Assembly: GCA_949432885.1 (NCBI GenBank)
Contig: CASQXY010000008.1
Coordinates: forward strand, 663 to 64,662
DNA from: an uncultured bacterium
GTDB lineage: Bacteria; Bacillota; Clostridia; Christensenellales; CAG-917
Length of the DNA stretch: 64,000 nucleotides
Direction: 5' to 3'
Both the position numbers and the translations under genes were made by a program. This document shows positions 3,620 through 58,560 of this stretch, piece by piece. Positions within the stretch are counted from its first letter, which is position 1. Every line of letters starts with the position of its first letter. Below the pieces are notes generated by a model. That model saw only the letters and a list, made by a program, of their open reading frames with translations, was not told where the DNA came from and did no database searches.

Positions 3620-4225
3620 GTGAATATGGAACGTGAAGTGCGCGAGCCCAAACAGGAACGCTCGATAGAAAAGAAAAACAAAATTCTGCAAGCGGGATAC
3701 GAGCTTTTTTCAAACGTAGGCTATTACAGTACGAATACCGCTCAGATAGCAAAACGTGCGGGAGTGTCCACCGGCATAGTTTACGGCTATTTCAAGGATA
3801 AGCGGGATATATTGCTTGATGTGCTCGGCATATATGTGGAAAGAGCGTTTTCTCCCGTTCTCAAACTTATAGATTCCCTCAAAGCGCCGATAAATTATTA
3901 TGTCCTTGCCAAGGACGTGCTTGACAACGCGATTGACATTCACCGCAACAACGCCAAAATTCACGAGGCTCTGCACTCTATGTCGCATACGGATACCGAT
4001 GTCAACGCCAGATTCATAGAACTCGAAGACAGCATAACTCTCAGAATATCCAACAAACTTGCGGCGCTTGGAGCCGACGCGCCCAACCTTACGGAACGAG
4101 TGCATTTTGCCATGGATATCGTCCAATCCTTTTCGCACGAATGGATTTTCGACAATCATCCCTACATAGATTATGCCGCTATGCGTACGATAGTCGAAAA
4201 CACATTGGTTGCTCTGTTTATCTGA
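3620..4225 (+). CDS. TetR/AcrR-family transcriptional regulator
   Basis: N-terminal HTH (YYSTNTAQIAKRAGVSTGIVYGYFKDK). The ORF opens at GTG 3620; ATG 3626 is an alternative start. Confidence 0.9.
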   Translation: MNMEREVREPKQERSIEKKNKILQAGYELFSNVGYYSTNTAQIAKRAGVSTGIVYGYFKDKRDILLDVLGIYVERAFSPVLKLIDSLKAPINYYVLAKDVLDNAIDIHRNNAKIHEALHSMSHTDTDVNARFIELEDSITLRISNKLAALGADAPNLTERVHFAMDIVQSFSHEWIFDNHPYIDYAAMRTIVENTLVALFI

Positions 4226-4447
4226 TTTCTTTTCTCAGTTCGCATTTAAAATTCAATCAATAGAACTACTTAAAAACTCCGCGAAGGCAGCATAAACCTG
4301 CACACAGATATTCCGAAAATAAACTGTCAGCAGCTAAACGCAAAAACCGGTTTAAATGCGCAAAACAAGGCTATAAACATATCTTTCGGTAAAATAGTTC
4401 GGTTTTTGATTGTAACATTCGATATCAAATCGCTTCAAGTATAATTA

Positions 4448-5383
4448 TCAGCCGACGAGTATATGCATGTTTCTAAGCTCGGCATTCTTTATTTTCTTCA
4501 AAATCGCAAACCCGTACGGCTCCAAATAACCGTCTTTGCAATCCGCAAGCTCCTGCCGTTTTATTTCGTTTGCTACGGCGAGAGAAATATCCTCGATTAT
4601 GTCGAGTTTTATTCTCCTTCCATCGCCGTCATTGTCGGCAGTGAGCAAAAATTCCAGCGGCGCCGTCATGTCAGAAAGTATTTCGAGAGAGCGCATGGCT
4701 TTGAAGGACCACTTGAAGTACGGACAGTGCTTCCTGTTAAGCAAAAATATAATCTCCGCGGCATTTCTCACAAATTCTGAAAGCGCGAGCATAGCCGCGC
4801 CCTCTTCTTTGTGCGCAAGACAGCGCGCATAATTATACTGTCCGCTCTGAGCCATTCTCACCGCCGCCGCGGCTGTTTTTTTCAGACGTACGTCCTCGGG
4901 CATTCCGTTTGCTATAATATCTCTGATACGTGAAAATTCTCCGAGGTCGTCGCGGAAAACCTTGCCGTTGACTGCCTCCGCAAAATACGCGCTCTCTGTG
5001 AACAGCCAGTCGCGCAGAGTTTCTGGCGCACCGAGGCAACCCGTATATCTTCTGTAAAACTCTCCGATAACGGAAACTCCCTGCGAGTTCGCTCCTATCG
5101 CGCTGGTATGTTTGAGCTTCGCGCCGCCGTATTCGGATTTTAGCGCGTCGTACGCCCTCGTAAGTCTGAAACCTATTTTTTCCTCGTCCTCGCGCGTTAG
5201 CCAAAGGCAGAAGCCCGTTTCAAAATCGTGGTCCTCTGACACCTCGTCGTCGTATCCGAAACACTCCGACCCGTGTCCCGCGAGACCGACCGCTATGCGG
5301 TTTGCATACTCGGGAAATTCGCGCTCTATCATCCGAGCGCCGCACTCCATATAAAATTTTTCGGCATTTATCAATCCGTTCAT
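4448..5383 (-). CDS. DUF4037 domain protein
   Basis: The N-terminal signature GLAGHGSECFGYDDEVSEDHDFETGFCLW is recalled as typical of DUF4037. Confidence 0.75.
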   Translation of the reverse strand: MNGLINAEKFYMECGARMIEREFPEYANRIAVGLAGHGSECFGYDDEVSEDHDFETGFCLWLTREDEEKIGFRLTRAYDALKSEYGGAKLKHTSAIGANSQGVSVIGEFYRRYTGCLGAPETLRDWLFTESAYFAEAVNGKVFRDDLGEFSRIRDIIANGMPEDVRLKKTAAAAVRMAQSGQYNYARCLAHKEEGAAMLALSEFVRNAAEIIFLLNRKHCPYFKWSFKAMRSLEILSDMTAPLEFLLTADNDGDGRRIKLDIIEDISLAVANEIKRQELADCKDGYLEPYGFAILKKIKNAELRNMHILVG

Positions 5384-6225: not shown

Positions 6226-6798
6226 TTAATGTATTTTATCAAATCGGATTATGGATTTGAATGCTTCCGTTACATTCTCTCTAAGCTCCGACAGACTTCC
6301 AGAATTATCAACGACGAAGTCCGCCGATTGGAGCAGAATACCTTCGTCTGCCTGTGCGTTTATTCTTGCAAGCGCGTCGCGCTCCGACATACCTCGCGCG
6401 GCAAGCCTTTCCAAGCGTATTTCGAGCGGCGCGTATATGAGAATGGTTTTATCGAAGAGCTTCTGCGCGCCTATTTCATAAAACAGCGGCATTTCCGCAA
6501 CGAGGGGGTCGGATTTTTCCTCTGCGATACGGCGAAGAATGGACGGATGCGCTATTGCGTTCAGTTTTTTCAGCTCTTCATCGTTTGCAAATACTATATC
6601 CGCAAGCTTTCTCCTATCCAATTTCCCAAAGTTTACGACGGACGGAAAAGCGGCTGCAATCTCTTTTATATATTCGGGAGATTGCAATAGTACGGAATTT
6701 ATCTCGTCCGCACTCAACGTAAAAAAACCGAGTTCCGCCGCTATTTTCATCGCCTCGCTTTTCCCTGAACCTATTCCGCCTATAATCGCAATTCTCAT
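6226..6798 (-). CDS. coaE: Dephospho-CoA kinase
   Basis: P-loop IIGGIGSGKS at the N-terminus. Size is 190 aa. It lies downstream of polA, as in many Firmicutes. Confidence 0.9.
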   Translation of the reverse strand: MRIAIIGGIGSGKSEAMKIAAELGFFTLSADEINSVLLQSPEYIKEIAAAFPSVVNFGKLDRRKLADIVFANDEELKKLNAIAHPSILRRIAEEKSDPLVAEMPLFYEIGAQKLFDKTILIYAPLEIRLERLAARGMSERDALARINAQADEGILLQSADFVVDNSGSLSELRENVTEAFKSIIRFDKIH

Positions 6799-6881: not shown

Positions 6882-9389
6882 CTATTTCAACGCGCCCCAG
6901 TCCTCCGCCGACGCTGCGTTCGCCACAAGCGGCACTTTGAGCTTAACCGCCCTTTCCATCTCGCAGATGAGAATATTCATAACCTCGTCCGCCTCGTCCT
7001 TAGCCGCGTCGATAATAAGCTCGTCGTGTATCTGTAAAATCATCTTGGACTTTTTGTCCTTCAAGCGGTTTTCGACGTCTATCATCGCCAGCTTGATTAT
7101 ATCAGCCGCCGACCCCTGCAAAGGAGTATTCATTGCCATACGTTCCGCCGCCGAACGCACAGGATAACTCGAAGCGTTCAAGTCTGACATATTTCGCCGC
7201 CTGCCTAGCATAGTTATTGCATAGCCCTTTTCTCTCGCCTCGCGCACGCACCCGTCCATGTAATCTCGCACGTCGGGGTGCTCCGTGAAATAATTGGCGA
7301 TGAACTCTCGCGCCTTATATTGCGGAATAGATAGGTTTTCGGCAAGTCCGAATCCGCTTATCCCGTATATGATGCCGAAATTGACCGCCTTTGCGTCCCT
7401 GCGCTGCGCGGCAGTAACCTGTGATATAGGTATCCCGAGTATCTGCGACGCGGTTATCGCATGGATATCATCTTCATTGTTGAACGCGTCTATAAGCTGT
7501 TTGTCGCCGCTCATATGGGCGAGCAGTCTAAGTTCTATTTGAGAGTAATCAGCAGAAACGAGCACGTTTCCCTCGCTTGGCAAAAACGCGCTCTTTATGT
7601 CCTTTGCCTCCTCACTGCGCGTGGGGATATTCTGCAAATTGGGATTGGTGGACGACAGTCTGCCCGTAGTCGTCACGCATTGATTAAACTCCGTATGGAT
7701 ACGTCCTCTGTTTATCAGCGGCTGAAGCCCTACGACGTAAGTCGATTGGAGCTTAGAGTAATGTCGATATTCCAAAATATCCTTCACTATGGGGTGAGCG
7801 TTGACCAGATTCGCAAGCACGTCCTCGCTCACGGAATAACCCGTCTTTGTCTTTTTGCCGTGCGGCAATCCAAGTTTGTCAAACAGAATTTCGCCAAGTT
7901 GCTTGGGCGACGCGATATTAAAAACGCACCCCGCTCCGTCGTATATGCGCTTTGCAAGTCTGTCTATAATTTCGCCGTATTTAGATTCCAACTCCTTCAA
8001 TTTGTCGTACGAAACGTGCACTCCGCGCTCTTCCATATTGCGCAAAACCACGCAAAGCGGCTGTTCAACCTCAAAAAACAACTTGTAAAGTTGCTTTTCG
8101 TGTAATAAGGCGGTCAATTTATCGCATTCCGCAAACAGTTCCGCCGCTCCGACGGAGTAGCCGTCTGCTCCCAAAACCTGCGCAAGACTCTTTATGGGCG
8201 CACTCTCGCGTGCAAGGTGCGCGGCAATCATAACGTCGAAGAATTTTTCGTTTTGAAAGCCGTATTTCTTGGAAAGAGATTTAAAATCGTAACAGACGAG
8301 CTCCTTATCCGCCGTGCCCTTGCGCACGATTTCAATCGCGTCGTCGAAGAACATTCCGTCGCTGAATAAGTCCTCTGCGCAGTTGACAACATACTCCGTC
8401 CTGCCGTCCACAGAGAAAGAAACGTTATCGTCGATAACAAGCGCGACCCTGTCCCCCGCCAGCGCGGAATTTATTTCCTCTGCGGATTTCAGCGCCACAG
8501 TGTTCTTATCGAATTCCTGCGGAGTCGGCTCGCTTTCGTCAAACTTCATCCTGCTTGCAAGCGTTGATATTTCAAGCTCCGCGAGCTTTGCTTTTACCTC
8601 CTGCGTGTATACGGGAGTAAACTTCAAATCGTCCAGCGTACACTCTACGGGCACGTTTAAATCTATTGTGGCAAGCCTTCTGCTGAGCAATGCGGAATCT
8701 CTGCCGTTCTGGACCTTTTCTCCCAATTTACCCTTTATATCCGCCGCATGCTCCAACACTCCGTCCAGCGAACCGAAATCGGCAATCAACTGCTTTGCGG
8801 TCTTCTCACCGACGCCGGGGATACCGGGTATATTGTCGGACGGGTCTCCCATAAGCGCTTTATAGTCTATGAACTGCGCCGTAGTAAAGCCGTCCGAAAG
8901 CAGTCGCGCTTCGTCGTAAATCTCTATCTCAGTGACTCCGCGCTTCGTCCAGAATACGCGCGTGCTCGGACTTACGAGCTGAAAACTGTCGCGGTCGCCC
9001 GTCACAATAATGCTTTCGTCGTCAAAACGCCTCGACAACGTGCCCAATATGTCGTCGCCCTCGTAACCTTGAAGACTTACGATTTTTATACCCATCGCCG
9101 TAATCAGACTTTTGAGAGGCTCCACCTGCTGGCGAAGCTCCTCGTCCATAGGCTTGCGCGTCGCCTTGTAGCCGTCGTACATTTCGTGTCTGAAAGTCGG
9201 TCCTTTGAGGTCGAACGCCGCTGCGATATGCGTGGGCTGCTGCTCCTTGATAAGTCTGAGCAAAATATTCAAAAATCCGAAAATCGCACCCGTATACTGA
9301 CCTGTGGTCGTTTTTAAGTTCGGCAAAGCGTGATATGCCCGGTGCATAAGACTGTTGGAATCCAAAAGCAATATTCTGTTCTTTGACAT
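6882..9389 (-). CDS. polA: DNA polymerase I
   Basis: 835 aa. It has a 5'-nuclease N-terminus, motif A (VSADYSQIELRLLAH) and motif C (LQIHDELIID). Confidence 0.97.
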   Translation of the reverse strand: MSKNRILLLDSNSLMHRAYHALPNLKTTTGQYTGAIFGFLNILLRLIKEQQPTHIAAAFDLKGPTFRHEMYDGYKATRKPMDEELRQQVEPLKSLITAMGIKIVSLQGYEGDDILGTLSRRFDDESIIVTGDRDSFQLVSPSTRVFWTKRGVTEIEIYDEARLLSDGFTTAQFIDYKALMGDPSDNIPGIPGVGEKTAKQLIADFGSLDGVLEHAADIKGKLGEKVQNGRDSALLSRRLATIDLNVPVECTLDDLKFTPVYTQEVKAKLAELEISTLASRMKFDESEPTPQEFDKNTVALKSAEEINSALAGDRVALVIDDNVSFSVDGRTEYVVNCAEDLFSDGMFFDDAIEIVRKGTADKELVCYDFKSLSKKYGFQNEKFFDVMIAAHLARESAPIKSLAQVLGADGYSVGAAELFAECDKLTALLHEKQLYKLFFEVEQPLCVVLRNMEERGVHVSYDKLKELESKYGEIIDRLAKRIYDGAGCVFNIASPKQLGEILFDKLGLPHGKKTKTGYSVSEDVLANLVNAHPIVKDILEYRHYSKLQSTYVVGLQPLINRGRIHTEFNQCVTTTGRLSSTNPNLQNIPTRSEEAKDIKSAFLPSEGNVLVSADYSQIELRLLAHMSGDKQLIDAFNNEDDIHAITASQILGIPISQVTAAQRRDAKAVNFGIIYGISGFGLAENLSIPQYKAREFIANYFTEHPDVRDYMDGCVREAREKGYAITMLGRRRNMSDLNASSYPVRSAAERMAMNTPLQGSAADIIKLAMIDVENRLKDKKSKMILQIHDELIIDAAKDEADEVMNILICEMERAVKLKVPLVANAASAEDWGALK

Positions 9390-16372: not shown

Positions 16373-16556
16373 AATATCGGATTATTGAGCTTAGGCAAGC
16401 CTAATATGCCACTAAAATCGGCAAATTTCGCGCATTATCATGCAGTTTGATGCCGAAAAAAGAATATTTTGCGCAAGTTTTAAGCACAATAACTGCCGCA
16501 ATTCGCTTGACTACTGCGTGCGAAAAGAGTATAACAGTGAAACGGTGAGGTGCACA

Positions 16557-17891
16557 ATGCTGATGCAAAGTCTGTCCGCTATCGAATATTTTGAAATACT
16601 CCTGCCCTTGGCTTTGATACTTCTGCTCGGGAAGTTCTTTTCGCTTATGGGTAAAAAAGTCGGTTTGCCGCAGGTTGTCGGCATGATTGTTTCCGGCATT
16701 GTCATCGGGCTCATAAAATACATCCCCAATCAAAACATTTTTACCCCCGCAACTCTCGAAGGGCTTTCGTTCCTCGCAAAAATAGGCGTAATACTCATCA
16801 TGTTTTCGGCGGGGCTCGGCACGGACTTGAAACAGTTTAAATCCTGCGGATTGCCCTCCGTAATCATCACGACAATGGGCGTTATATTCCCGTTGGCTTT
16901 CGGGTTTATAGTAGCCTCCGCTTTCAACGGCGGTTTCAAGGATATGTCCTCGCACGTCGTGATGTCCAATCTGTTTTACGGGACGATTTTGGCGGCTACG
17001 TCCGTCAGCATAACCGTCGCGGCGCTCAAAGAACTCGGCAAGCTCAACACCAAAGTCGGCACTTCGATTATTTCAGCCGCCATTCTGGACGATATAATAG
17101 GCGTGATTCTGCTTTCTCTCTTCGTAAGTTTGGACAGCGGCAGCGGCGTAGGGAACGTAGGCATAGTAATCGGCAAAATGATAGGCTTTTTCGCGGCGGC
17201 AGCGGCGGTGGGAATAGGCGTGCACTTCCTGCTCAATCTGATTGAAAAACGGCATCCCCACACCCGCAGACTTCCAATACTCGGCTTTGCGATATGTTTC
17301 TTTTTCGCGTATGCCGCGGAAAAATGGTTCGGAGTAGCGGACATAACGGGCGCGTTTGTCGCAGGTATCATTCTGTCCACCGTCAGAGAGCACGAGTATA
17401 TAGACAGAAAGGTCGAAGTCAGCAACTATCTCATTTTCGCGCCCGTATTCTTCGCAAATATAGGCATAACCGCCGATTTTACGGGTATAAGCGCGACAAT
17501 GGTCGGCTTCGGCTTTGCGTTTATCGCAGCCGGTATTCTCGGCAAAGTGATAGGCTGCGGACTCGGCTCGCTCATATCGAGATATTCCGTCAAAGACAGT
17601 CTCCGCGTAGGCGTAGGCATGATGGTTCGCGCCGAAGTAGTGCTGGTATGCACTCAAAAAGGCGTAGACAACGGACTTGTAGATCCTGCGATTATGCCGT
17701 TTGTGCTTATACTCATAATTTTGACTACCCTGCTCACGCCTCTGCTTCTCAAACTTCTTTACAAGGGCGACAAATCGGATATATCGCTCCTACCTCCTCA
17801 AGACGTATCCTCCGATCCCGAAACGGAGCAAGCGGTACAGCAGAGCGAAGCCCCTCAAACACCCGAAACTCCCCAAACAGAAAACGTTTGA
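16557..17891 (+). CDS. Cation:proton antiporter (CPA2 / Na_H_Exchanger family)
   Basis: About 12 TM segments; LLGKFFSLMGKKVGLPQVVGMIVSGIVIG is typical of the family. Start moved to ATG 16557 (RBS GGTGAGG 6 nt upstream). Confidence 0.9.
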   Translation: MLMQSLSAIEYFEILLPLALILLLGKFFSLMGKKVGLPQVVGMIVSGIVIGLIKYIPNQNIFTPATLEGLSFLAKIGVILIMFSAGLGTDLKQFKSCGLPSVIITTMGVIFPLAFGFIVASAFNGGFKDMSSHVVMSNLFYGTILAATSVSITVAALKELGKLNTKVGTSIISAAILDDIIGVILLSLFVSLDSGSGVGNVGIVIGKMIGFFAAAAAVGIGVHFLLNLIEKRHPHTRRLPILGFAICFFFAYAAEKWFGVADITGAFVAGIILSTVREHEYIDRKVEVSNYLIFAPVFFANIGITADFTGISATMVGFGFAFIAAGILGKVIGCGLGSLISRYSVKDSLRVGVGMMVRAEVVLVCTQKGVDNGLVDPAIMPFVLILIILTTLLTPLLLKLLYKGDKSDISLLPPQDVSSDPETEQAVQQSEAPQTPETPQTENV

Positions 17892-17922
17892 TTCCGATAA
17901 TCTAAATGACTGAATTTGAAAA

Positions 17923-17947
17923 CTGCTCTTTCAAAGAGCGGTTTTTT
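17923..17947 (+). terminator. Rho-independent terminator of the antiporter gene
   Basis: CTGCTCTT-TCA-AAGAGCGG followed by T6. Confidence 0.7.
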
Positions 17948-17971
17948 ATTATACTCTATCGGATACAAAAT

Positions 17972-18064
17972 GCGAAAGAGGCATTTTTGCGAACCGCCTA
18001 ATGTACTGACGTACATGACGGCAAGCAAAAATGCCTCTGACAAGGTTATGCGCCAAATAGCGCG
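17972..18064 (-). repeat. Bulged long-hairpin element, copy 1 (3 nt after the gpmI stop)
   Basis: Minus strand reads ...UUGUCAGAGGCAUUUUUGC-UU-GCCGUC-AUGUAC-GUCA-GUACAU-UA-GGCGGU-UC-GCAAAAAUGCCUCUUUCGC. The outer stem is a perfect 14 bp (17977-17990 with 18025-18038). Related copies lie at 19734-19829, 21026-21146 and 58438-58560. Confidence 0.7.
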
Positions 18065-18067
18065 GTT

Positions 18068-19633
18068 TTACTTGGTTATACTAGCGTCCCAGTGCCCGTC
18101 AGCCTCAAACCCCATCAAATTTGCGACGGTCGCCGCTACGTTGGACAGACCGAATTCACCGTCCGCAATTTCGCAATCCGCATTATATACTACAAACGGC
18201 ACGACGTTCAAGCTGTGCGCCGTACGTACGGCAAGCTCGCCCTTCTTGTTTTTTTCCAACATTTCGTCGGCGTTGCCGTGGTCTGCCGTGACGGCAAGTA
18301 TATAGTTATTGCGCTTAACTACGGGCAGCAGCCTCGCAAGAGCAAGGTCGACCGCCTCCACTCCTATTATTGTAGCGGGGAGGCTTCCCGTATGTCCGAC
18401 CATATCGCCGTTGGGATAATTGCAACGTATAAATCCGTATTCGCCGCTCTCGATTGCCTCTATGACCTTATCGGTAACCTCTGCGGATTTCATCCAAGGT
18501 CTTTGGTCGAAGGACACCTTATCGCTGGGCACCTCCTCCCATACTTCCAGCTTATCGTCGAATTTCTCCGAGCGGTTGCCGTTCCAGAAATATGTTACAT
18601 GTCCGTATTTTTGCGTTTCGGACACCGCGTAGGACTTCACTCCCAGCTCGACAAGCCTTTCGCTGAGCGTATATTTTATTTGCGGCGGCTCCACAAGGAA
18701 ACGCCTCGGCAAATGCAAGTCGCCGTCGTATTGAAGCATGCCTGCGTACTTCACCGCGGGCATTTCTCCTCTGTCAAAGCCGTCGAAGTCGGCGTTATCG
18801 AATGCCATAGACAATTCGATGGCTCTATCGCCGCGGAAGTTGAAAAGAATCACACAGTCTCCGTCCTTCATTGCGCCGACAGGCCGTCCTCCCTCTTTTA
18901 TCACAAACGCAGGCAAATCTTGGTCGATAATTCCTTCGTTCTCGCATCTGTACGTTTCGATAGCCTCGCGCGCGGTGGCGAAGCCTCTGCCCGCGCCGTA
19001 AACGTGCGTATAGAAGCCCGATTTCACCATATCCCAGTTGGCGAAATATCTATCCATAGTTATCTTCATACGTCCGCCGCCCGAAGCGATTTTCGCGTCG
19101 AAACCGCAATCGTTAAGTTGCGAAAGCGCCTCTTCAAGCATATCGACGTATGTAAGCGCGGAGGTTGCGGGCACGTCTCTGCCGTCAAGCAGGATATGCA
19201 CGCGCACGCGCTTTATACCCTCCGCCTTTGCTTCGCGTATAAGTGAAAGCAGATGTCCGATATTGCTGTGCACGTTTCCGTCCGAAAGCAAGCCTATGAA
19301 ATGCATTGCGGAGCCGTTTTCAACGCAGGTGTTTTTAAGCTCCTGCCAAGCGGCGGATTTGTAGATATCGCCGCTTTCGATAGCCTCTTCGACGAGCTTA
19401 GCGCCCTGAGAGTACACCTGTCCGCAACCGAGAGCGTTGTGCCCGACCTCGCTGTTGCCCATATCCTCGTCCGACGGAAGGCCGACGGCGGTGCCGTGAG
19501 CCTTTACGTATGTATGCGGACATTCCGCCAGCAATTTGTCAAGCGTAGGCGTATTCGCCAACGTCACTGCGTCGCCGAGCCCTGTTTTTGACTTTCCGAC
19601 GCCGTCCATAACTACAAGTAAGAGTTTGTTCAT
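18068..19633 (-). CDS. gpmI: 2,3-bisphosphoglycerate-independent phosphoglycerate mutase
   Basis: 521 aa. MGNSEVGHNALG active-site Ser region and a metalloenzyme C-terminus (TADHGNAD). Confidence 0.97.
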   Translation of the reverse strand: MNKLLLVVMDGVGKSKTGLGDAVTLANTPTLDKLLAECPHTYVKAHGTAVGLPSDEDMGNSEVGHNALGCGQVYSQGAKLVEEAIESGDIYKSAAWQELKNTCVENGSAMHFIGLLSDGNVHSNIGHLLSLIREAKAEGIKRVRVHILLDGRDVPATSALTYVDMLEEALSQLNDCGFDAKIASGGGRMKITMDRYFANWDMVKSGFYTHVYGAGRGFATAREAIETYRCENEGIIDQDLPAFVIKEGGRPVGAMKDGDCVILFNFRGDRAIELSMAFDNADFDGFDRGEMPAVKYAGMLQYDGDLHLPRRFLVEPPQIKYTLSERLVELGVKSYAVSETQKYGHVTYFWNGNRSEKFDDKLEVWEEVPSDKVSFDQRPWMKSAEVTDKVIEAIESGEYGFIRCNYPNGDMVGHTGSLPATIIGVEAVDLALARLLPVVKRNNYILAVTADHGNADEMLEKNKKGELAVRTAHSLNVVPFVVYNADCEIADGEFGLSNVAATVANLMGFEADGHWDASITK

Positions 19634-19733
19634 AATTATCCTTTAAATTTTTTGTTTTAAAAGCGTTCAACTAGAATGCTTTATTGAAATCACTCGGATT
19701 AGCGCATTCGCCAGTTAAAATTCTATATCGGTT

Positions 19734-19829
19734 GCATAGCGCGAAAGACGAGCACGCGAGTCGACCGGTGTATCTTCGTACACGACGACAAGCGCGCGCA
19801 AGTCTGACAAAGCTATGCGAAAATGCGAA
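19734..19829 (-). repeat. Bulged long-hairpin element, copy 2 (2 nt after the tpiA stop)
   Basis: Same architecture with a GC-rich outer stem (GCGCGC/GCGUGC) and lower helix GUCGUC/GUCGAC. An extra closing pair GCATAGC (19734-19740) / GCTATGC (19812-19818) is present. It shares the flanks UUGUCAGA and UCUUUCGC. Confidence 0.65.
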
Positions 19830-19831
19830 TT

Positions 19832-20584
19832 TTAGTAATTGACTACGTTAGAGAAGTCAACCGCCTTCAACGAAGCTCCGCCGATAAGTCCGCCGTCGAT
19901 TTCGGGCATAGCCATAAGCTCTTTGACGTTCTTGGGATTCATGCTTCCGCCGTACTGAATACGCACTCTGTTCTCGGCGCACTTGGGGCAGTAAAGCTCC
20001 GCCATAACCTTTCTGATGATTGCGATAGTCTCGTTTGCGACCTCTGCCGTTGCGGTCTTGCCCGTGCCGATAGCCCAAACGGGTTCATATGCGATTACGA
20101 TATTGTCAAGCTCGTCCTTGTCGATACCCGCAAACGCGCCCTTGGTCTGGCGTACGAGCACTTCTTCCACCTTACCAGCTTCGCGCTCTTCGAGCGTTTC
20201 GCCTACGCAGACAATAGGTTTGAGTCCAGCCGCAAGAGCAGCCTTCGTCCTCGCGTTGACAGTCTCGTCCGTCTCAGCAAAATACTGACGGCGCTCGCTG
20301 TGTCCGATGATGACGTACTCAACGCCGAGCTCGACGAGCATCTTTGCGGATATCTCACCCGTAAACGCTCCTTTATCAGCCCAGTGCACGTTTTCCGCTC
20401 CGACCTTGATATTCGTACCCTTGGTCAATTCTACTGCCGCCGCAAGGTCGGTGTACGGCGTGCATATAACCACGTCGCACTGCGCGTCCTTAACGAGCGG
20501 AATGAGCTCGTTTACAAGAGCCTTGGTCTCTGCGATTGTATTGTTCATTTTCCAGTTTCCTGCGATGATTGCTTTTCTTGACAT
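19832..20584 (-). CDS. tpiA: Triosephosphate isomerase
   Basis: [25 protein letters not shown] motifs. 250 aa. Confidence 0.97.
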
Positions 20585-20645
20585 ATTTTCACCTCTGAAA
20601 ATTTTTTATTATTAACAATAGTTAACATTACTTTACTTATTGCAC

Positions 20646-21146
20646 GTCGGGGTCTCTAAATAGAATAACCCCCTTCCTCAGATGTTCCCCTATTGCGGTC
20701 TCTCACATTTAACTCCGTCAAACAGGGACGTTTGACGGAGACCCCAAGTGAGCCTCTCCGCAAGTCTTACGACGTGGGAACACAACGCGATTGGACTTTC
20801 AGTCAACAATCGCTATTCCGTCGCTACGCTTCTTACGGCGCTCGCATATACAAGCATAAAGCTCTGCTTATGCCACTCGCTCGGGAGCGAATAAACGGGA
20901 CTCACTACCTCGCTTGTACAAAGCGTCAAGCTCGGCACTCGAATGGCGCGCGCCTTGCACGCGCTGGTGCAGTCTCTTGATAAAGTGCACGGCGTATTCG
21001 ATTCTTATCAAACTTAATTGCACGGAATAATGCGATATTTGGATGAAGAGCAAGGAAGACGAGCACACGAGCCGCCAAACGTACTTGCGTACGTGACGGC
21101 GAGTGCGCACAGTCTGACAAAGCTATTCGCCAAATAGCGCGTTATT
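20646..21146 (-). repeat. Composite structured element of about 500 nt filling the pgk-tpiA spacer (hairpin module 21026-21146 plus a 380-nt module)
   Basis: The hairpin copy has a GCAA tetraloop. Its outer inverted repeat AATAATGCGATATTTGG / CCAAATAGCGCGTTATT overlaps the pgk stop. The remainder shares ordered blocks with 23281-23564 and 58081-58437. Confidence 0.7.
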
Positions 21147-22452
21147 CATTTAGACAGGCAATGCCGGGAAGGACTTTACCTTCCAAAAACTCCAACGACG
21201 CGCCGCCGCCCGTAGAAATATGAGACATCTTGTCCGCAAAGCCGAGCTGGGCGACCGCCGCCGCGCTGTCTCCGCCGCCGATGATGGTTGTTGCGTCCGT
21301 CTCCGCCATAGCCTTTGCGACAGCGATTGTGCCTTGCGCGCAGGTGGGGTTCTCAAACACGCCCATAGGTCCGTTCCATACGACGGTCTTCGCGCTCTTT
21401 ATGGCTTCGGCAAACAGCTCCTGCGTTTTTACGCCGATATCGAGTCCCATTTTATCTGCGGGAATGGACATACTCTCCACGCACTCAACCTCGATAGGAG
21501 CGTTGATTGGGTCGGGGAATGCAGGGGCGACCATAGTGTCCACAGGCAGATAGATAGTCTTGCCGAGGGACTTTGCCTTTTCAAGCATGCTCTTGCAGTA
21601 TTCAACCTTCTCCTCGTCGACCAAGGAAGTGCCTATTGTACCGCCCTGCGCCTTGATGAAGGTATACGCCATACCGCCGCCGATGATAAGAGTGTCGCAC
21701 TTCCCGAGCAGATTGTCGATAACGTTGAGCTTATCGGCAACCTTAGCGCCGCCGAGAATAGCGACGAAAGGACGTACGGGATTTTCAACGGCATTGCCGA
21801 GGAATTTCAATTCCTTTTCGATAAGGAAGCCGCTGACCGCGGTCTTTGCAAAGCCGTACTGAACGATGCCCGCCGTCGTCGCATGCGCGCGGTGCGCCGT
21901 GCCGAACGCGTCGTTGACGTACACATCGCAGAAATCCGCAAGCTGTCGGCAAAGCTCCTCGCTGTTCTTCTCCTCGCCTGCATAGAAACGGGTGTTTTCA
22001 AGCAACACGATTTCCCCTTCCTTCATAGCCGCGACCTTTGTATGCGCGTCCTCTCCTACGAGGTCGCAAGCAAACTTGACTCTGCCGGGGAAGAGCTCCG
22101 CAAGTCTGTCCGCAACGGGTTTGAGCGTAAATTTCTTTTGGTCGTTTTTCAATGCCTTTGCGATATACTCCGCCTTCGCCGCCTCTCTCTCGTTTTCGGG
22201 AAGAGCCTCAACCGCCTTTTTCTCCTTCTTATTGAGTCCGAAGCCCTCGGTGAAAATATTGTGCGGCTTACCCATATGCGAGCACAGTATCACCTTCGCG
22301 CCGTGATTTACGAGATACGTGATAGTGGGAAGCGCGCCGTTGATACGGTTCTCATCGGTGATAACGCCGTCCACCATAGGAACGTTGAAATCGCATCTGC
22401 ACAGGCATTTTTTGCCCTGTACGTCAATGTCGCGGATTGTCAGTTTTGCCAT
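21142..22452 (-). CDS. pgk: Phosphoglycerate kinase (436 aa, with an insertion of about 40 aa)
   Basis: [18 protein letters not shown] motifs. There is extra charged sequence at about aa 65-106. Confidence 0.97.
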
Positions 22453-22752
22453 AAGATTATCTCCTTACAGAAATTATTTTTAGCTTCATGCGCACGCGTG
22501 AGCACGCAGATATAAACAATATAACACATTAGAAAATAATTATCAATAATTCCGTCCAAATTTTGGCAAACAAACAAAAATGGAAGTCTGCAATTCAGAT
22601 TTCCCGTACGATTCGACGTTACAAAACAATAAATAAATTAAAAACTATTCCGTACTATTGCAAATCTTATCGAATCAAACATAATTGCAAAATCGACAAA
22701 AAGCCAAGTTCATTTGTCAAATTTTGCATATAAAATGCCATTTCGGCTATAT

Positions 22753-23238
22753 TCAATACTTCGTCAGGCGTCCCTGCTCCAAAAGGTTCGCGCCGCCAGT
22801 CTGGCGTATCGCCTCGTATACGACTATCGCCACGGAGTTGGAAAGGTTGAGGCTTCTCGCCTCGGATATCATAGGTATGCGTATCGCTCTGTCATAGTTG
22901 TCGCGCAGAAGTTCTTCGGGCAGCCCCTTTGTCTCCTTGCCGAACACGAGATAGTCTCCCTCGCGGAAATCCGCGCCGTCATATCTCTTTGCTCCTTTTG
23001 TCGTCAGATACCAAAACCGACCGTCTGCGTTTTTTTCAAAAAATTCGTCGAGATTTTCATACACAATGAAGTCCGTAAGGTGCCAGTAATCCAATCCCGC
23101 GCGCTTCAACGCCCTGTCGCTTATGTCAAATCCGAGCGGCTTGACAAGGTGGACCTTGCTTCCCGTCGCCGCCGCGGTGCGCACTATGTTACCTGTGTTC
23201 TGCGGTATTTCAGGTTCGACTAAAACTATATTAAACAT
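22753..23238 (-). CDS. trmL: tRNA (cytidine/uridine-2'-O-)-methyltransferase TrmL (SpoU family)
   Basis: 161 aa. LVEPEIPQNTGNIVRTAAATG and the SPOUT knot C-terminus (LNLSNSVAIVVYEA). Confidence 0.9.
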   Translation of the reverse strand: MFNIVLVEPEIPQNTGNIVRTAAATGSKVHLVKPLGFDISDRALKRAGLDYWHLTDFIVYENLDEFFEKNADGRFWYLTTKGAKRYDGADFREGDYLVFGKETKGLPEELLRDNYDRAIRIPMISEARSLNLSNSVAIVVYEAIRQTGGANLLEQGRLTKY

Positions 23239-23280
23239 ATTCTTTTCCTTTACAAAAACTGCTAGTTTTATACTTTAATT

Positions 23281-23564
23281 GAAAAGCCCCCTCTTTCCCT
23301 TCGGGCTTTTCTCCCACCACTCGAATTAGGAACGTACACTATTTAACGTTCCGTCGCTCGCGGAGGGAGACACTCGGCGCTCGCATATACAAGCTTAGAA
23401 CACTGTTTATATCACTCGTTCGCGGACTTAAACAACAATGTCCGCTCACTTGTACGGAACGTCAAGCTCGGCACTCAGGTAGGCGCGCGCCCTGCACGCG
23501 CTATGCAGCTCCTTGAACGACGACTCGTCGTATTCACACTCGTTCAAGCCGATGAGATTATATA
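23281..23564 (-). repeat. Structured element, 284-nt module only (begins immediately after the dus stop at 23565-23567)
   Basis: It shares blocks and hairpins with 20646-21025 and 58081-58437. The terminal stem is GAAAAGCCC/GGGCTTTTC (23281-23311). The 8-bp hairpin lies at 23483-23501. There are four CGAGUG motifs on the minus strand. Confidence 0.65.
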
Positions 23565-24491
23565 TCAATCGTGTAAAAATTGCTCTATTATCCTTAAAAC
23601 ATCTGAGATACTCTTTGCTTCGCCGACGGCTACGCGCACGGCTTTGGCATGGTCCGAGCCTTTGGCGTAGTGGCAAAGCTGCAACTTCATTACGTTTGCA
23701 ATCACTCTGTCGGGCATATAACTGCGCAGAATTTGTATATGCTCTCTTGCCGTCTCCGCTCTGTCGAATTCAAAGGGCTTGTCCGCAAGCTCCGCGAAAA
23801 TGTAAGGTCTGCCCAGCGCGCCGCGGCCTATCATAAATCCGTCCGCGCCCGACTCCTCTCTGACCCTTTCGAGACTTTTTCTATCCGTTATATCGCCGCT
23901 GGCAATAACAGGTATGGAAACCGCCTCTTTGACCTCGCGCGTAATCGAGTGATCGGCGGCTCCGCTGTAAAACTGCGTCCTGTATCTTGGATGTACGGTG
24001 ACCGCCGCCGCGCCGCTTTTTTCCGCGGCGAGAGCGCATTGAACGGCAAGCGGCTTACCCTCCTCGATGCCCGCTCTCATCTTTACGGTCACTGGCTTGC
24101 CCGACCCCTCGCGCGCCGCATGCACAAGCTCTGCGAGCAGAACTGTATCCGTCATAAGCGCGCTTCCGTCTCCGTTGCCGAAAATCTTCTTGACAGGGCA
24201 GCCCGCGTTTATATCGATTACGTCGAATTTTTGAAGCCTTTCGTCCTTTGCGGCCCTGTACATAAATTCGGGCTCGTGTCCGAACAGCTGTACCGCGCAG
24301 GGGCTGTCGAGAGAAGCCAAAAGCTCGTTATTCTCTCTGCCGTTATAGATTATCCCCTTTGCGCTTATAAGCTCCGTATAAGTAAGCCCCGCGCCGTAAC
24401 GCGAACATAAATGCCTCATCGCAACGTCGGAAAAACCCGCAATCGGAGCAAAGAGCAAATCGCTTTCAAGCTGTACGTTTGCTATATGCAT
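23565..24491 (-). CDS. dus: tRNA-dihydrouridine synthase
   Basis: TIM-barrel Dus motifs (LAPIAGFSD, DINAGCPVKK, VTVKMR). Confidence 0.92.
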   Translation of the reverse strand: MHIANVQLESDLLFAPIAGFSDVAMRHLCSRYGAGLTYTELISAKGIIYNGRENNELLASLDSPCAVQLFGHEPEFMYRAAKDERLQKFDVIDINAGCPVKKIFGNGDGSALMTDTVLLAELVHAAREGSGKPVTVKMRAGIEEGKPLAVQCALAAEKSGAAAVTVHPRYRTQFYSGAADHSITREVKEAVSIPVIASGDITDRKSLERVREESGADGFMIGRGALGRPYIFAELADKPFEFDRAETAREHIQILRSYMPDRVIANVMKLQLCHYAKGSDHAKAVRVAVGEAKSISDVLRIIEQFLHD

Positions 24492-55782: not shown

Positions 55783-55885
55783 GCTTCGGTGCGATTACAT
55801 TCCTATCTCAATCGATTGACTTTATACTTACTTTTATTTATTATTTTATTTAATCATTATTTGCAACTTTTGATGAGGTGTGACC

Positions 55886-57271
55886 ATGGCTCAGCTTACA
55901 ATGGACAAAATAGTAGCTCTTGCAAAAAACCGCGGCTTCGTGTATCCCGGCAGCGAAATATACGGCGGACTTTCCAATTCTTGGGACTACGGTCCTCTCG
56001 GAGTCGCGCTCAAAAACAATATCAAACAGGCTTGGTGGAAGAAATTCGTTGTGGAAAATCCTCACAACGTCGGCATCGACAGTGCGATACTCATGAACCC
56101 GACCACGTGGCAGGCATCGGGACATATCGGCGGTTTTTCTGACCCGCTTATGGACTGCAAGAGCTGCAAATCCCGTCACCGCGCGGACAATCTCATCGAG
56201 GACTATATGGCAAAGCACGGCGCGCAGGAGAATATCGCGGGTTGGAGCAACGAGCAAATGGAGGCGTATATCGCCGAGCACAAAATTCCCTGCCCCGTCT
56301 GCGGCGCGAGCGACTTCACGGGAGTGAGGAAATTCAACCTCATGTTCAAGACCTTCATCGGCGTCACCGAGGACAGCACTTCCACAGTTTATCTGCGCCC
56401 CGAGACCGCGCAGGGCATATTTGTCAACTTCAAAAACGTACAGCGCACGTCGCGCAAAAAAATACCATTCGGAATCGGTCAGATAGGAAAGAGCTTCCGC
56501 AACGAAATCACGCCCGGCAACTTTATATTCCGCATCCGTGAATTCGAGCAAATGGAAATGGAATTTTTCTGCAAACCCGGCACTGACCTCGAATGGTTTG
56601 CATACTGGAAAAACTTCTGTCATCAGTGGCTCAAAGACCTCGGCATAAAGGAGGAGAATCTCCGTCTGCGCGACCATGACGCGGAGGAGCTCTGCTTCTA
56701 TTCCAAGGCTACGACGGACTTCGAGTTTAAATTCCCATTCGGCTGGGGCGAACTGTGGGGGGTCGCCGACCGCACCGACTACGACCTGAATCAGCATATA
56801 AAGACGAGCGGCAAGGATTTGAGCTACGTAGACCCCGTCACCAACGAGAAGTACGTGCCGTACGTGGTCGAGCCATCGCTCGGCGCGGACCGCGCGTTCC
56901 TCGCTTTCCTATGCAACGCGTATGACGAGGAGACCGTGGGAGAAGGAGACACTCGCATAGTGCTTCACTTCCATCCCGCGCTTGCTCCCGTCAAGGTGGC
57001 TATTCTGCCCCTTCAAAAACAGCTCAACGAAAAGGCGGAGGAGCTGTATATCGAGCTGTCAAAACGCTTCGCCTGCGATTTCGACGCTTCCGCTTCAATA
57101 GGCAAGCGCTATCGCAGACAGGATGAAATCGGCACGCCATACTGCGTAACGGTGGACTTCGACACCCTCGAAGACAGCGCCGTGACCGTACGCGAGCGCG
57201 ACAGCATGGCGCAGGTGCGCATCCCGATTTCCGAGCTTACGGCGTACTTCGAGGATAAATTGAGGTATTGA
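55886..57271 (+). CDS. glyQS: Glycine--tRNA ligase (dimeric GlyQS type)
   Basis: [21 protein letters not shown]-terminus and class II motifs. ATG 55886 follows GAGGTG; the ORF track opens at GTG 55880. Confidence 0.96.
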
Positions 57272-57291
57272 GATTAAAGCATATTTATTGT

Positions 57292-57319
57292 AAAAACAGC
57301 GCGAAACGCGCTGTTTTTA
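57292..57319. terminator. Bidirectional rho-independent terminator after glyQS
   Basis: ACAGCGCG-AAA-CGCGCTGT is flanked by A5 and T5. Confidence 0.85.
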
Positions 57320-57331
57320 TTAATTCCCAAA

Positions 57332-57544
57332 TTATTGAACCGAATTTATACTGATTCTGGTATCTGGCTCATCAATCATACTTGAAACTATCAAATTATC
57401 CGAAATTGTGGATTTATCAATATTCAATTCGATTATTTCTAAAATATAATTTCTCAAATCGACTTCATTTTTTATAATACGTTTATCCGCATCATAAAAA
57501 ATCGTTTCAATATTACTTTCGCATTTCTTTTGGTTTTGTTGCAT
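57332..57544 (-). CDS. Hypothetical 70-aa ORF in the AT-rich islet (possibly a gene fragment)
   Basis: AT-rich composition with no convincing RBS. The longer 90-aa version overlaps the XRE gene start on the opposite strand. Confidence 0.3.
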   Translation of the reverse strand: MQQNQKKCESNIETIFYDADKRIIKNEVDLRNYILEIIELNIDKSTISDNLIVSSMIDEPDTRISINSVQ

Positions 57545-57551
57545 AAAAGCA

Positions 57552-57965
57552 TTGATTGAAGACGAGGGCTTATCGCTTCGCGCGTTCGCAGAAGCCGTCG
57601 ACATTCCGTATCAAGAAGTATACGCCTATGAAAATGACGGATATTTACCATCTGTATATAATGCGGAAAAAATCGCGTTGTTTTTCGATTGCTCTTTTGA
57701 TTATCTTTTCGGAGTATCAAACACTTTTAAGCAGACAACGTATAAAAAAGTAGATATTTCTCTGTTTTATCCTAGATATAAAGAACTTTTAGAGAAAGAG
57801 AAAGTAAGCCATTATAATTTACATAAAACTATTAAATTGAATAATTCCAGTATAACAAAGTGGAAAAACGGTTCTGTTCCAAGAATAGAAAGTTTAATAA
57901 AAATTGCTACCCGCTTTTCAACTCATATTGACTACCTAGTCGGTCGTAGCGATAGTCGGTACTAA
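57552..57965 (+). CDS. XRE-family protein with two tandem HTH_3 domains (start codon unclear)
   Basis: GLSLRAFAEAVDIPYQEVYAYENDGYLPS...FDYLFG and SHYNLHKTIKLNNSSITKWKNGSVPR...IDYLVG. The frame is open from 57498 with no upstream ATG; only TTG codons at 57537 and 57552 are available. Confidence 0.6.
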   Translation: MIEDEGLSLRAFAEAVDIPYQEVYAYENDGYLPSVYNAEKIALFFDCSFDYLFGVSNTFKQTTYKKVDISLFYPRYKELLEKEKVSHYNLHKTIKLNNSSITKWKNGSVPRIESLIKIATRFSTHIDYLVGRSDSRY

Positions 57966-57983
57966 TTATTACAAGATGAGAAT

Positions 57984-58018
57984 TCAGTTGGGTATTATCA
58001 CTGACCAACTGATTTTTT
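57984..58018 (+). terminator. Rho-independent terminator of the XRE gene
   Basis: CAGTTGG-(13 nt)-CCAACTG followed by T7. Confidence 0.7.
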
Positions 58019-58080
58019 TATACACCTTATCAGAATAAGGGTGACTTGGTCTACAAGGGTAGACGGCGTATACTCTAAAA

Positions 58081-58560
58081 AGAAATTGCCCCCTCTTTCA
58101 CTTCGGGTATTTCTCCCACCACTCGAATTAGAAAAGTAGTCTTTTTTACTCTCCGTCGCTCGCGGGGGAGACAGTCGGCACTCGCCTATTGTCATATTAT
58201 TCTATCTATGTCACTCGGTCGCAAACGTAAATTAATAAAGCTCGTTTGCTCCCTAGTACTGCGAAGCTCGGCTCGGCACTCACGGGGCGTTCGCCCTGCG
58301 AACGCTGGCAGTCTCTTGAAAAAGTGCATGTCGTGTACACACCCGCACAAGCTAAGTGCAAGCGCTTTAAGTGCGCAATTAGTCTCTTGAATTATGACTC
58401 ATAGTTCTCTCCACCTTATCAATCTAAGCGTTAAATCAAAACTTCATCATTAAGAGAAGAACGCGAAAGAGACATTTTTGCGAACCGCCTAACGTACTGA
58501 CGTACGTGACGGCGAGCAAAAATGCCTCTGACAAAGTTATTCGCTTAATGATGAAGTTTT
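58081..58560 (-). repeat. Composite structured element (hairpin module 58438-58560 overlapping the rex stop, plus a 357-nt module 58081-58437)
   Basis: The 17-bp perfect outer stem AAAACTTCATCATTAAG / CTTAATGATGAAGTTTT encloses a core hairpin nearly identical to the copy at 17972-18064. The rest shares ordered blocks and covarying hairpins with 20646-21025 and 23281-23564. Confidence 0.7.

Follow-up and report, generated by a model that had tools for sequence, protein, structure and literature searches.

Small interspersed hairpin repeats (REP, ERIC, BOX/RUP/SPRITE and Correia) shape mRNA stability, transcription termination and operon polarity in well-studied pathogens, and such repeats are almost unknown from uncultured gut Clostridia. 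SPRITE, a Firmicute repeat of ∼105 nucleotides (nt) with AAAA/TTTT termini and ∼30 copies per genome in Streptococcus pneumoniae, has a terminator-like stem followed by U residues, is enriched near the 3' ends of coding sequences (CDS) and has been proposed to be a co-opted terminator; a target-site duplication has not been established for it, and an insertion sequence (IS) with matching inverted repeats is not known (PMC3049150). The RNA hairpin of the Correia elements of Neisseria is bound or cleaved by RNase III and alters expression, and these elements have been mobilized between strains (PMC2649163), while CGTC-tagged repeats also occur without a known transposase (PMC3733652). Here we describe element A, which occurs four times in a 64,000-nt stretch of DNA from an uncultured member of the Christensenellales (contig CASQXY010000008.1, positions 663 to 64,662; the whole stretch is called the window), after the genes gpmI, tpiA, pgk and rex. 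Element A is best read, from its sequence, as a family, not described before, of near-palindromic and non-coding small interspersed repeats of ∼138 nt in uncultured animal-gut Christensenellales/Clostridia. It adds a new, taxon-restricted member to the small interspersed hairpin repeats already known, and is not dedicated to the glycolytic operon.

The full unit reads (T)AAAACCGCGCTATTGAGCGAATAGC-TTTGTCAGA-(variable stem)-CTCGCCGTCACGTACG-loop-GTACGTTAGGCGG-TTC-(variable stem)-TCTTTCGCG-CTCTTCATCTCAATAGCGCGGTTTT(A); it has a GC content of ∼48% and no open reading frame (ORF) of its own, and its arms are complementary over the entire length. A covariance model built from copies in other genomes and run without filters over all 64 kb returned only the four window copies (Table 1), with E-values of 1e-25 to 1e-32 and scores of 100-124 bits on the minus (sense) strand, against at most 38 bits on the plus (antisense) strand. 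The four are homologous, far beyond chance. Alignment and covariance-model matches agree with the initial annotation of this DNA, made from the letters alone, which had placed four homologous hairpins here on the minus strand. The layout it described, consisting of UUGUCAGA, a variable stem of 10-14 bp, a GCCGUC/GGCGG helix, a RYGUAC/GUACRY helix, a 3' bulge and UCUUYC, is present in 4/4 copies, and the reported choice between an AU-rich and a GC-rich middle stem is real, as are the swaps in the lower helix and in the upper one, where C:G and U:A are split 17:17 across the family. What it had called extra closing helices are indeed present, but they are the outer stem of the family itself, which holds the stop codon, and the unit is accordingly larger than had been noted.

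The same annotation had put each hairpin close to a stop codon, and the stops, all of them TAA (gpmI, 18068-18070; tpiA, 19832-19834; pgk, 21142-21144; rex, 58537-58539), do lie 0-3 nt from the spans it gave or within them; with the full unit delimited, all four copies start on or ahead of the stop codon of their host. The gpmI stop is the TAA within TAAAACCGCG, at the base of the 5' arm of a copy whose 3' outer arm is lost or degenerate; directly 3' of this truncated copy stands an ordinary intrinsic terminator that is common to gpmI and a convergent Na+/H+ exchanger gene (from the Pfam matches of 16440-17891). The tpiA stop falls at model offset +6, and the copy ends 72 nt ahead of the gpmI start. 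Because the pgk stop sits inside the outer stem of its copy, the last two pgk codons (AAT GAA) and the stop are element sequence. In rex the stop is at offset +27; the 5' arm, which pairs with the 3' arm over 19 bp, takes in the final ∼7 codons (KTSSLSE*).

Table 1. Coordinates of element A, its host genes and associated features (positions are those of the window unless a locus, designated by an L number, is named).
Feature	Position	Strand	Evidence or note
Element A copy after gpmI	17935-18073	minus	cmsearch 99.7 bits, E 6e-25; fold -46.7 kcal/mol, z -6.9
Element A copy after tpiA	19705-19838	minus	cmsearch 102.9 bits; fold -40.1 kcal/mol, z -2.6
Element A copy after pgk	21015-21150	minus	cmsearch 121.8 bits; fold -54.1 kcal/mol, z -6.8
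Element A copy after rex	58427-58564	minus	cmsearch 123.8 bits; fold -67.6 kcal/mol, z -12.9
gpmI (2,3-bisphosphoglycerate-independent phosphoglycerate mutase), host	18068-19633	minus	Pfam Metalloenzyme + iPGM_N
tpiA (triosephosphate isomerase), host	19832-20584	minus	Pfam TIM 1.2e-97
pgk (phosphoglycerate kinase), host	21142-22452	minus	Pfam PGK 1.1e-152
rex (redox-sensing repressor), host	58537-59184	minus	Pfam Put_DNA-bind_N + CoA_binding
Intrinsic terminator, ordinary (GCTCTT-tga-AAGAGC + AGTTTTC)	17918-17947 (about)	minus	sequence; weak covariance-model match 17913-17958
Element B, window	20641-21011	minus	
Element B, window	23260-23547	minus	
Element B, window	58060-58350	minus	
Element B, other loci	L006 2548-2952		
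Element B, other loci	L007 3615-3848		
Element B, other loci	L008 6479-6845		
Element B, other loci	L009 5894-6236		
Element B, other loci	L010 59-368, 6688-7046		
Element B, other loci	L016 2683-2990, 4503-4786		
Element B, other loci	L032 4047-4296		
Alternative tpiA-gpmI spacer hairpin	L031 5251-5343		
Alternative tpiA-gpmI spacer hairpin	L033 5254-5400		
Alternative tpiA-gpmI spacer hairpin	L035 5251-5397		
Alternative tpiA-gpmI spacer hairpin	L037 5251-5320		
Alternative tpiA-gpmI spacer hairpin	L040 5251-5312		
Alternative tpiA-gpmI spacer hairpin	L042 3900-3968		

Element A extends well beyond the window. An exact-pattern scan of 185,579 species genomes gave 22 matches, all of them short elements, at 20 loci in ∼8 uncultured Christensenellales/Clostridia metagenome-assembled genomes (MAGs) from rabbit, rumen, buffalo and mouse gut. 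A covariance model, R1, identified 35 copies in the window and the pattern loci, 3 further copies in metagenome contigs and 10 in contigs fetched via TpiA homologs; beyond the window there are about 45 copies, spread over at least 10 MAGs and metagenome contigs of Christensenellales/Clostridia. Among the carriers are the MAGs CANDBF01, CAJTQT01, CANQCC01, JAMPEA01 and ONYW01 and two ENA contigs of 617 kb and 828 kb. A pattern scan of metagenomes returned 10 loci, only two of which (L022 and L028) were true copies, and element A is rare outside animal-gut MAGs. A second subfamily (CAACCATGTAC) lacks CGTC. Rfam 15 gave 0 matches at gathering score in the window, and relaxing the threshold to E<=1 (for L001 and L009) or to E<=5 (for window positions 20500-23700) brought up no relevant Rfam match. 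Neither blastn against plasmids and phages nor a pattern scan of viral contigs (0 matches) identified element A, and the literature on Christensenellaceae repeats and stop-codon-overlapping palindromes yielded no prior description. The initial annotation had proposed both a genome-wide covariance-model scan, which found further copies in many genomes, and a comparison with Rfam, in which no family matched; the known IS or MITE (a miniature inverted-repeat transposable element) that it named as a contrary outcome was found in none of Rfam, plasmids and phages.

The long bulged hairpin is real and is maintained via compensatory changes. With 34 copies aligned to the model, 93.5% of pair cells held a standard pair, compared with 34-45% when partners were slid by 1-3 columns; 31 of the 41 pairs showed double-sided changes, and the observed pairing values were reached by 0 of 500 shuffles. 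The structure was also inspected as an RNAalifold consensus. The middle and outer stems are swapped wholesale between genomes and fully compensated: the rex ortholog in L017 has an outer stem that differs from that of the window but is compensated, and outer stems that include coding sequence are still paired in orthologs, both for rex (window and L017) and for pgk (window, L001 and L031). Pairing is thus strongly kept across the family, where a lack of supported covariation had been foreseen as grounds for abandoning the hairpin. The apical RYGTAC helix and the internal loops (CTTTGTCAG, GTACG, TT-C--G and CATC) are nearly invariant; mean information is 1.02 bits at unpaired and 1.15 bits at paired positions, so loop nucleotides are conserved about equally, and a U:G pair in the lower helix is kept in 22 of 34 copies. 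Conserved and asymmetric, the loops resemble a recognition surface, and the invariant ones (CUUUGUCAGA / UCUUUCGCG, CGUC-RYGUAC) are probably the site for a mobilizing or binding protein. Because element A is a palindrome, the covariation is equally consistent with an RNA hairpin, a single-stranded DNA (ssDNA) hairpin or a pair of inverted repeats kept similar to each other.

Conservation of this kind could point to a host-domesticated RNA motif, an mRNA 3'-end site for an RNA-binding protein or RNase that is copied by recombination and not by transposition. Loops conserved like stems, the retained U:G pair and outer stems that stay paired through coding sequence all argue for it, as does the strong sense orientation described below. 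The hosts, however, have no common functional theme, the same sites are empty in most related species, the family is rare (the 22 pattern matches above), and strain-level gain or loss of units and their arrays resemble mobile DNA; we consider such a motif distinctly improbable.

A Rex operator or other symmetric protein site was considered and rejected: the TTGTCAGA block and its 3' partner (reverse complement CGCGAAAGA) are not symmetric half-sites, and the hosts are unrelated. In two copies, L019 5265-5443(-) and L001 6448-6623(+), the latter being the gpmI ortholog in the nearest relative of the window, the same nested ∼40-nt hairpin (GGGTCCCCRCAAAAC...GTTTTGTGGGGA) replaces the apical loop; it is a modular extension or else was inserted secondarily into the GTAC apex.

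The initial annotation had argued for RNA over a DNA palindrome on the ground that every non-Watson-Crick position is a G-U pair on the gene strand. This does not hold even in the window, where counts of G-U to A-C are 2:0 for rex, 3:1 for pgk, 2:1 for tpiA and 5:2 for gpmI, and where the pgk copy is more stable on the plus strand (-56.6 versus -54.1 kcal/mol). Across the family, the sense strand has 83 G-U versus 39 A-C wobble cells, dominated by two positions (U56:G121 and G44:U133). When both strands were folded, the sense strand was the more stable in 19 of 34 copies (Wilcoxon p = 0.48), the mean difference was +2.0 kcal/mol in favor of antisense, and in several genomes the antisense fold was better by 8-22 kcal/mol. 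As an argument for RNA, the asymmetry vanishes family-wide.

The most characteristic property of element A is its registration on stop codons. In 27 of 35 copies a long same-strand ORF ends within the 5' arm, with its stop at offset +3 to +8 (the TAA of TAAAACC), +19 (the TGA of ATTGAGCG) or +27 (the TAA of GCGAATAAC). These stops close all three frames (TAA at +5, TGA at +19 and TAA at +27), and because element A brings them with it, insertion at the very end of a gene would be harmless. A stop at +19 or +27 gives the protein an element-encoded tail, which is KPRY* in L008 and in GpmI of L001 and KTALLSE*-like in Rex (KTSSLSE*), L020 and L009; in several host proteins Pfam domains reach the last residues. 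Of the other 8 copies, some are the second or third unit in a tandem array (L005, L020, L011/L018), two follow a 30-codon ORF (in L009 and in its ortholog L007) and one is antisense. In the L009/L007 pair (6483-6640(-) and ∼6930-7050(-), respectively), a promoter-like TTGACA-17-TATTAT is followed by this ORF (MLIIFPLIIASGFGCITRGRLPFKTALLSD*), the last 7 codons and stop of which are in the 5' arm; it may encode a small membrane peptide, or belong to a non-coding transcript with its end in element A.

The host genes, confirmed with Pfam for the 14 that were scanned, are unrelated housekeeping genes. Outside the window they encode a transketolase C-terminal domain, MnmE, YchF, a pyridoxal phosphate-dependent cysteine-synthase-like enzyme (CysK), transaldolase, an RNA methyltransferase, UvrB, a type II dehydroquinase (AroQ), LysS and ArgS, and additional host types are an ABC transporter and surface proteins. 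The description of element A as a feature of the pgk-tpiA-gpmI operon has therefore to be given up, since it follows at least 20 unrelated genes and the glycolytic sites are empty in related species. A dedicated cis-regulatory RNA of central carbon or redox metabolism, a 3' element of the glycolytic operon and rex, would account for the placement of three of the four window copies in pgk-tpiA-gpmI and of one after rex, and for the transaldolase and transketolase hosts; it is contradicted by the rest of the host list, most of which is of other kinds (tRNA synthetases, UvrB, MnmE, YchF, the ABC transporter and surface proteins), and by the empty glycolytic sites in close relatives, and is very unlikely.

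An imperfect palindrome that runs from the stop codon after each gene, with conserved bulges and ends of an AAC...GTT-like form, also brings to mind an integron-type cassette system with attC-like recombination sites. The hosts, though, are core genes with a conserved MazG-Dus-SpoU-pgk-tpiA-gpmI synteny in L035, L036, L040 and L041; the R''/R' consensus RYYYAAC/GTTRRRY does not match the (T)AAAACC...GGTTTT(A) ends; internal sequence is highly conserved, unlike that of attC; and an integrase was not seen in the scanned window genes. With the wrong core sites, a conserved interior and syntenic core hosts, we rejected identity with attC, and an attC-like system is scarcely credible.

Orientation is nearly uniform: element A is sense to ∼24 independent host genes, with one clearly antisense copy, where equal orientations had been named in advance as evidence against a functional RNA. 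The antisense copy, L015 3660-3798(-), is in the 5' region of the next gene and abuts its ribosome-binding site and the start codon at 3806. It faces a copy of a different subfamily, L015 3485-3622(+), at a distance of 37 nt, and the pair sits between the transaldolase gene and the next same-strand gene.

Contigs carrying TpiA homologs were scanned with R1 for occupancy of the pgk, tpiA and gpmI sites. All three are filled in the window and in its nearest relative, L001 (MAG CANDBF; ∼86% nucleotide identity to the window), which are the only two with a copy at the tpiA site. The pgk and gpmI sites are filled in L039, L040 and L041, with tandem units at gpmI in the last two, and the pgk site alone is filled in L031 and L032 (∼75-81% nucleotide identity to the window). 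L033-L038 and L042 have no copy at any of the sites; in L033 and L034 a pgk gene is missing upstream of tpiA, and there is hence no pgk site to score. L041 and L040 are 95-98% identical, yet L041 has one extra unit of ∼124 nt (at ∼4072-4195; the matching L040 point is ∼4203), four codons before the pgk stop, and because of this insertion the C terminus of PGK reads LNDRAN* in L041 and LNDKH* in L040. A relic, GACAAGCACTAA, and then the resident copy of element A directly follow the inserted unit.

Head-to-tail arrays of two or three units, spaced by ∼134-165 nt, were found at L005 6728-7136, L020 6498-6928 and L040/L041 6862-7165; since the units within the L040/L041 arrays are only ∼78% identical, these are not simple recent duplications. 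Outer-stem sequence is common to the copies of one genome and differs, with compensation, between genomes. Orthologous copies in L006 and L010 are ∼91% identical (counted from the alignment), compared with ∼75% for the adjacent gene, and the downstream spacer is unalignable. Like a MITE, element A is shorter than ∼300 bp, non-coding and bounded by inverted repeats, with dispersed copies that show presence/absence polymorphism at orthologous sites; these features suggest an interspersed repeat that is under constraint and probably mobile. Downstream of the pgk copy in L031, positions 4393-4490 hold a partial direct repeat of the pgk end and the start of element A (AAGGCAAGCACTAATCGGCGAACAGCC versus GACAAGCACTAATCGGCGAATAGCC), which is probably the remnant of a former tandem unit.

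Mobility of this kind could also belong to a purely selfish DNA element of the REP/REPIN or IS200/IS605 type, with an ssDNA hairpin recognized by a putative transposase (for example, a tyrosine/HUH enzyme), inserted beside existing hairpins or stop-proximal A/T runs, an orientation set by the replication strand or by insertion chemistry, and only incidental effects on RNA. Several observations are consistent with it: the strands fold about equally well, the invariant asymmetric loops and the CGTC at the foot of the apical RYGTAC hairpin recall tagged REPs (PMC3733652), tandem arrays occur and a new unit has entered at the foot of a copy already present, the G-rich strand is the one that carries every copy, and copies within a genome are homogeneous. 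At 138 nt, however, element A is far from the 20-40 nt of REPs, and a RAYT or other transposase near the copies was not found in the annotated loci, few as these are. With ∼80% of genes on the leading strand, ∼5 of 25 copies would be expected to be antisense and one was seen (P about 0.03, by our own calculation), and in JAMPEA contig 5 (85 kb) both strands carry copies, every one of them sense to the gene it belongs to, the sole hint against a replication explanation. Exact registration on stop codons would require a further assumption about targeting. We regard a purely selfish element as possible but unlikely.

We find it somewhat more probable than not that element A is a co-transcribed, non-autonomous interspersed repeat at gene 3' ends that acts as a terminator or attenuator, as an exonuclease barrier, or as both, and is possibly a substrate of RNase III. 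Most copies start with AAAA and end with GG-TTTT(A) beside a GC-rich stem base (CCGCGC/GCGCGG), ends that resemble a bidirectional terminator stretched over a ∼60-bp hairpin. The tpiA-gpmI spacer points the same way: in 6/6 lineages without element A it holds an unrelated stable hairpin of 9-14 bp, often followed by a U run (Table 1). Because all six have such a hairpin, a 3'-end hairpin after tpiA is a conserved feature, and element A appears to fill this niche in the lineage of the window. The pattern suggests that pgk-tpiA-gpmI is punctuated by attenuators or terminators group-wide and is not a plain read-through operon. The repeat would have spread as a non-autonomous MITE/SPRITE-like element that lands in, or is tolerated only at, gene 3' ends; co-transcription with the upstream gene would give an interrupted RNA hairpin of ∼60 bp from the stop codon to GG-UUUU; and this would replace the ordinary 3'-end hairpin, whose tasks could be intrinsic termination or attenuation (weak or bidirectional), protection from 3'-5' exonucleases and perhaps cleavage by RNase III. 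Within the window it may subdivide the pgk-tpiA-gpmI transcript or stabilize segments of it. The function that we infer as most plausible is that of a 3'-untranslated-region (3'-UTR) terminator or stabilizer. The functional RNA of the initial annotation survives in its conserved, covarying hairpin and its sense orientation; operon specificity and the wobble argument fall away, which leaves an RNA function plausible.

Several points weigh against this co-transcribed 3'-end repeat. Because both strands fold about equally, the pairing itself says nothing for RNA over DNA. The U tract is only 4 nt long, and a consensus terminator scan called no copy of element A. Orientation is confounded with the replication strand, every copy lying on the G-rich strand of its locus, and the sign of the GC skew tracks element A in every locus but tracks gene orientation equally. 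Mere tolerance of downstream insertion predicts a looser arrangement than the zero spacing to the stop codon seen at ∼24 independent genes. In the search for target-site duplications, intergenic regions with empty and filled tpiA sites were unalignable and the L041 insertion was flanked at best by an ambiguous "GA"; the T...A flanks of near-identical copies in CANQCC are indistinguishable from a 1-bp extension of the palindrome or from a TAA stop. The ends of element A that a partner transposase would match are CTTTGTCAGA...TCTTTCGCG; a transposase or an IS with matching ends was not seen among the scanned window genes, which are part of the total, or in the annotated loci near copies. Transcription, folding as RNA, the role in termination or stabilization and the mode of mobility all come from reading the sequence.

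A more far-reaching possibility, which we think doubtful, is that element A actively homes to stop codons or terminator hairpins, a folded single strand of DNA or RNA being recognized via the invariant loops, and that together with a second repeat, element B, it forms mobile "gene-boundary" modules that rewrite the 3' and 5' untranslated regions of Christensenellales genes. If the strict registration does reflect targeted insertion, an unrecognized site-specific mobilization mechanism would be implied.

Element B is an unrelated repeat family of 290-410 nt with conserved blocks between variable inserts (CAGCGCGTGCAGGGCGCGCGCC; GTACAAGnGAGCGGGC...GCCCGCGAACGAGTGGCATAA; TGTCTCCC-CCGCGAGCGACGGA; GGTGGGAGAAAAGCCCGAAGGGAAAGAGGGGGC). 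Its copies are sense-oriented and stop 22-57 nt short of the start codons of unrelated genes, among them those for a SpoU-family methylase and TpiA; UppP and ArgS were assigned by eye. Element A is followed directly by element B in 9 intergenic regions; the element B copy between pgk and tpiA in the window is a 369-nt insertion relative to L001, and in L032 an inverted element B replaces the 3' arm of element A found in the 99%-identical L031. Element B has no Rfam match and its motif geometry does not fit a T-box, group II intron domain V or RNase P, each of which was rejected; it may be a novel mobile 5' leader or structured RNA. Elsewhere in the window, a minus-strand ORF at 55850-56797 has no Pfam match and is overlapped by a plus-strand ORF at 55880-57271, a class II aminoacyl-tRNA synthetase (tRNA-synt_2b + HGTP_anticodon) convergent with rex; because Pfam matches only the latter, the true gene is at 55880-57271 on the plus strand. 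From the synthetase to element B, 57272-58060 (∼800 nt) has short ORFs only.

Element A is a repeat welded to the stop codon that offers fail-safe stops in all three frames, sometimes encodes the final residues of core enzymes (PGK, GpmI and Rex) and substitutes for ordinary 3' hairpins in a glycolytic gene cluster. Unless it is recognized, annotation of Christensenellales MAGs will misread gene ends, terminators and "conserved 3'-UTR RNAs".

Intrinsic (bidirectional) terminators share with element A a place directly after the stop codon and a GC-rich stem base flanked by A and T runs, but ordinary ones are about five times shorter, whereas element A is a conserved multicopy family with invariant internal loops and a short U tract. 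The CGTC-tagged repeats of the REP/REPIN class are hairpins with a tetranucleotide foot, to which the CGTC, 6-bp RYGTAC stem and 4- to 7-nt loop of element A correspond (PMC3116915, PMC3733652); they too form tandem or clustered copies, and are thought to be mobilized single-stranded. REPs differ in their length of 20-40 nt, stems of 8-9 bp and more than 100 copies per genome, and CGTC REPs are not reported in Firmicutes; in element A the CGTC is base paired within a larger palindrome and is absent from the second subfamily. We rejected identity with REP on size, only the apical CGTC and 6-bp stem resembling a CGTC REP. The Correia repeat-enclosed elements, inverted-repeat elements of 100-155 bp that are co-transcribed with their neighbors, are of a similar size class, but they have 26-bp terminal inverted repeats around a non-palindromic core, a TA target duplication, an IHF site and outward promoters.

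The enterobacterial ERIC/IRU (RU-1), at 127 bp, is like element A an imperfect palindrome over its whole length, similar in size, located in intergenic regions that are transcribed (for element A, by prediction) and MITE-like with no transposase known. To our knowledge, both orientations are found for ERIC, and it is not registered on stop codons. It belongs to another phylum. As with element A, it can lie partly in ORFs and supply C-terminal codons (PMC2759123).

The closest published analogue that we found is the pneumococcal SPRITE, with which element A was compared by description only (PMC3049150). Both are small Firmicute repeats near CDS 3' ends with AAAA/TTTT termini, which most copies of element A have, and enrichment there is pronounced in element A, with a stop within its first 27 nt in 27 of 35 copies. 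SPRITE, however, has an 18-bp duplex, a long U-rich tail, an AT-rich composition and a general coding bias (63% leading strand), whereas element A has a multi-helix bulged hairpin with invariant loops, a 4-nt U run, a GC content of ∼48%, a stop codon inside the stem at fixed offsets and a ∼25:1 bias to sense. What is unusual about element A, then, is that it is registered on stop codons with zero spacer, that as a near-palindrome it is almost exclusively sense-oriented, and that it has a companion in element B.

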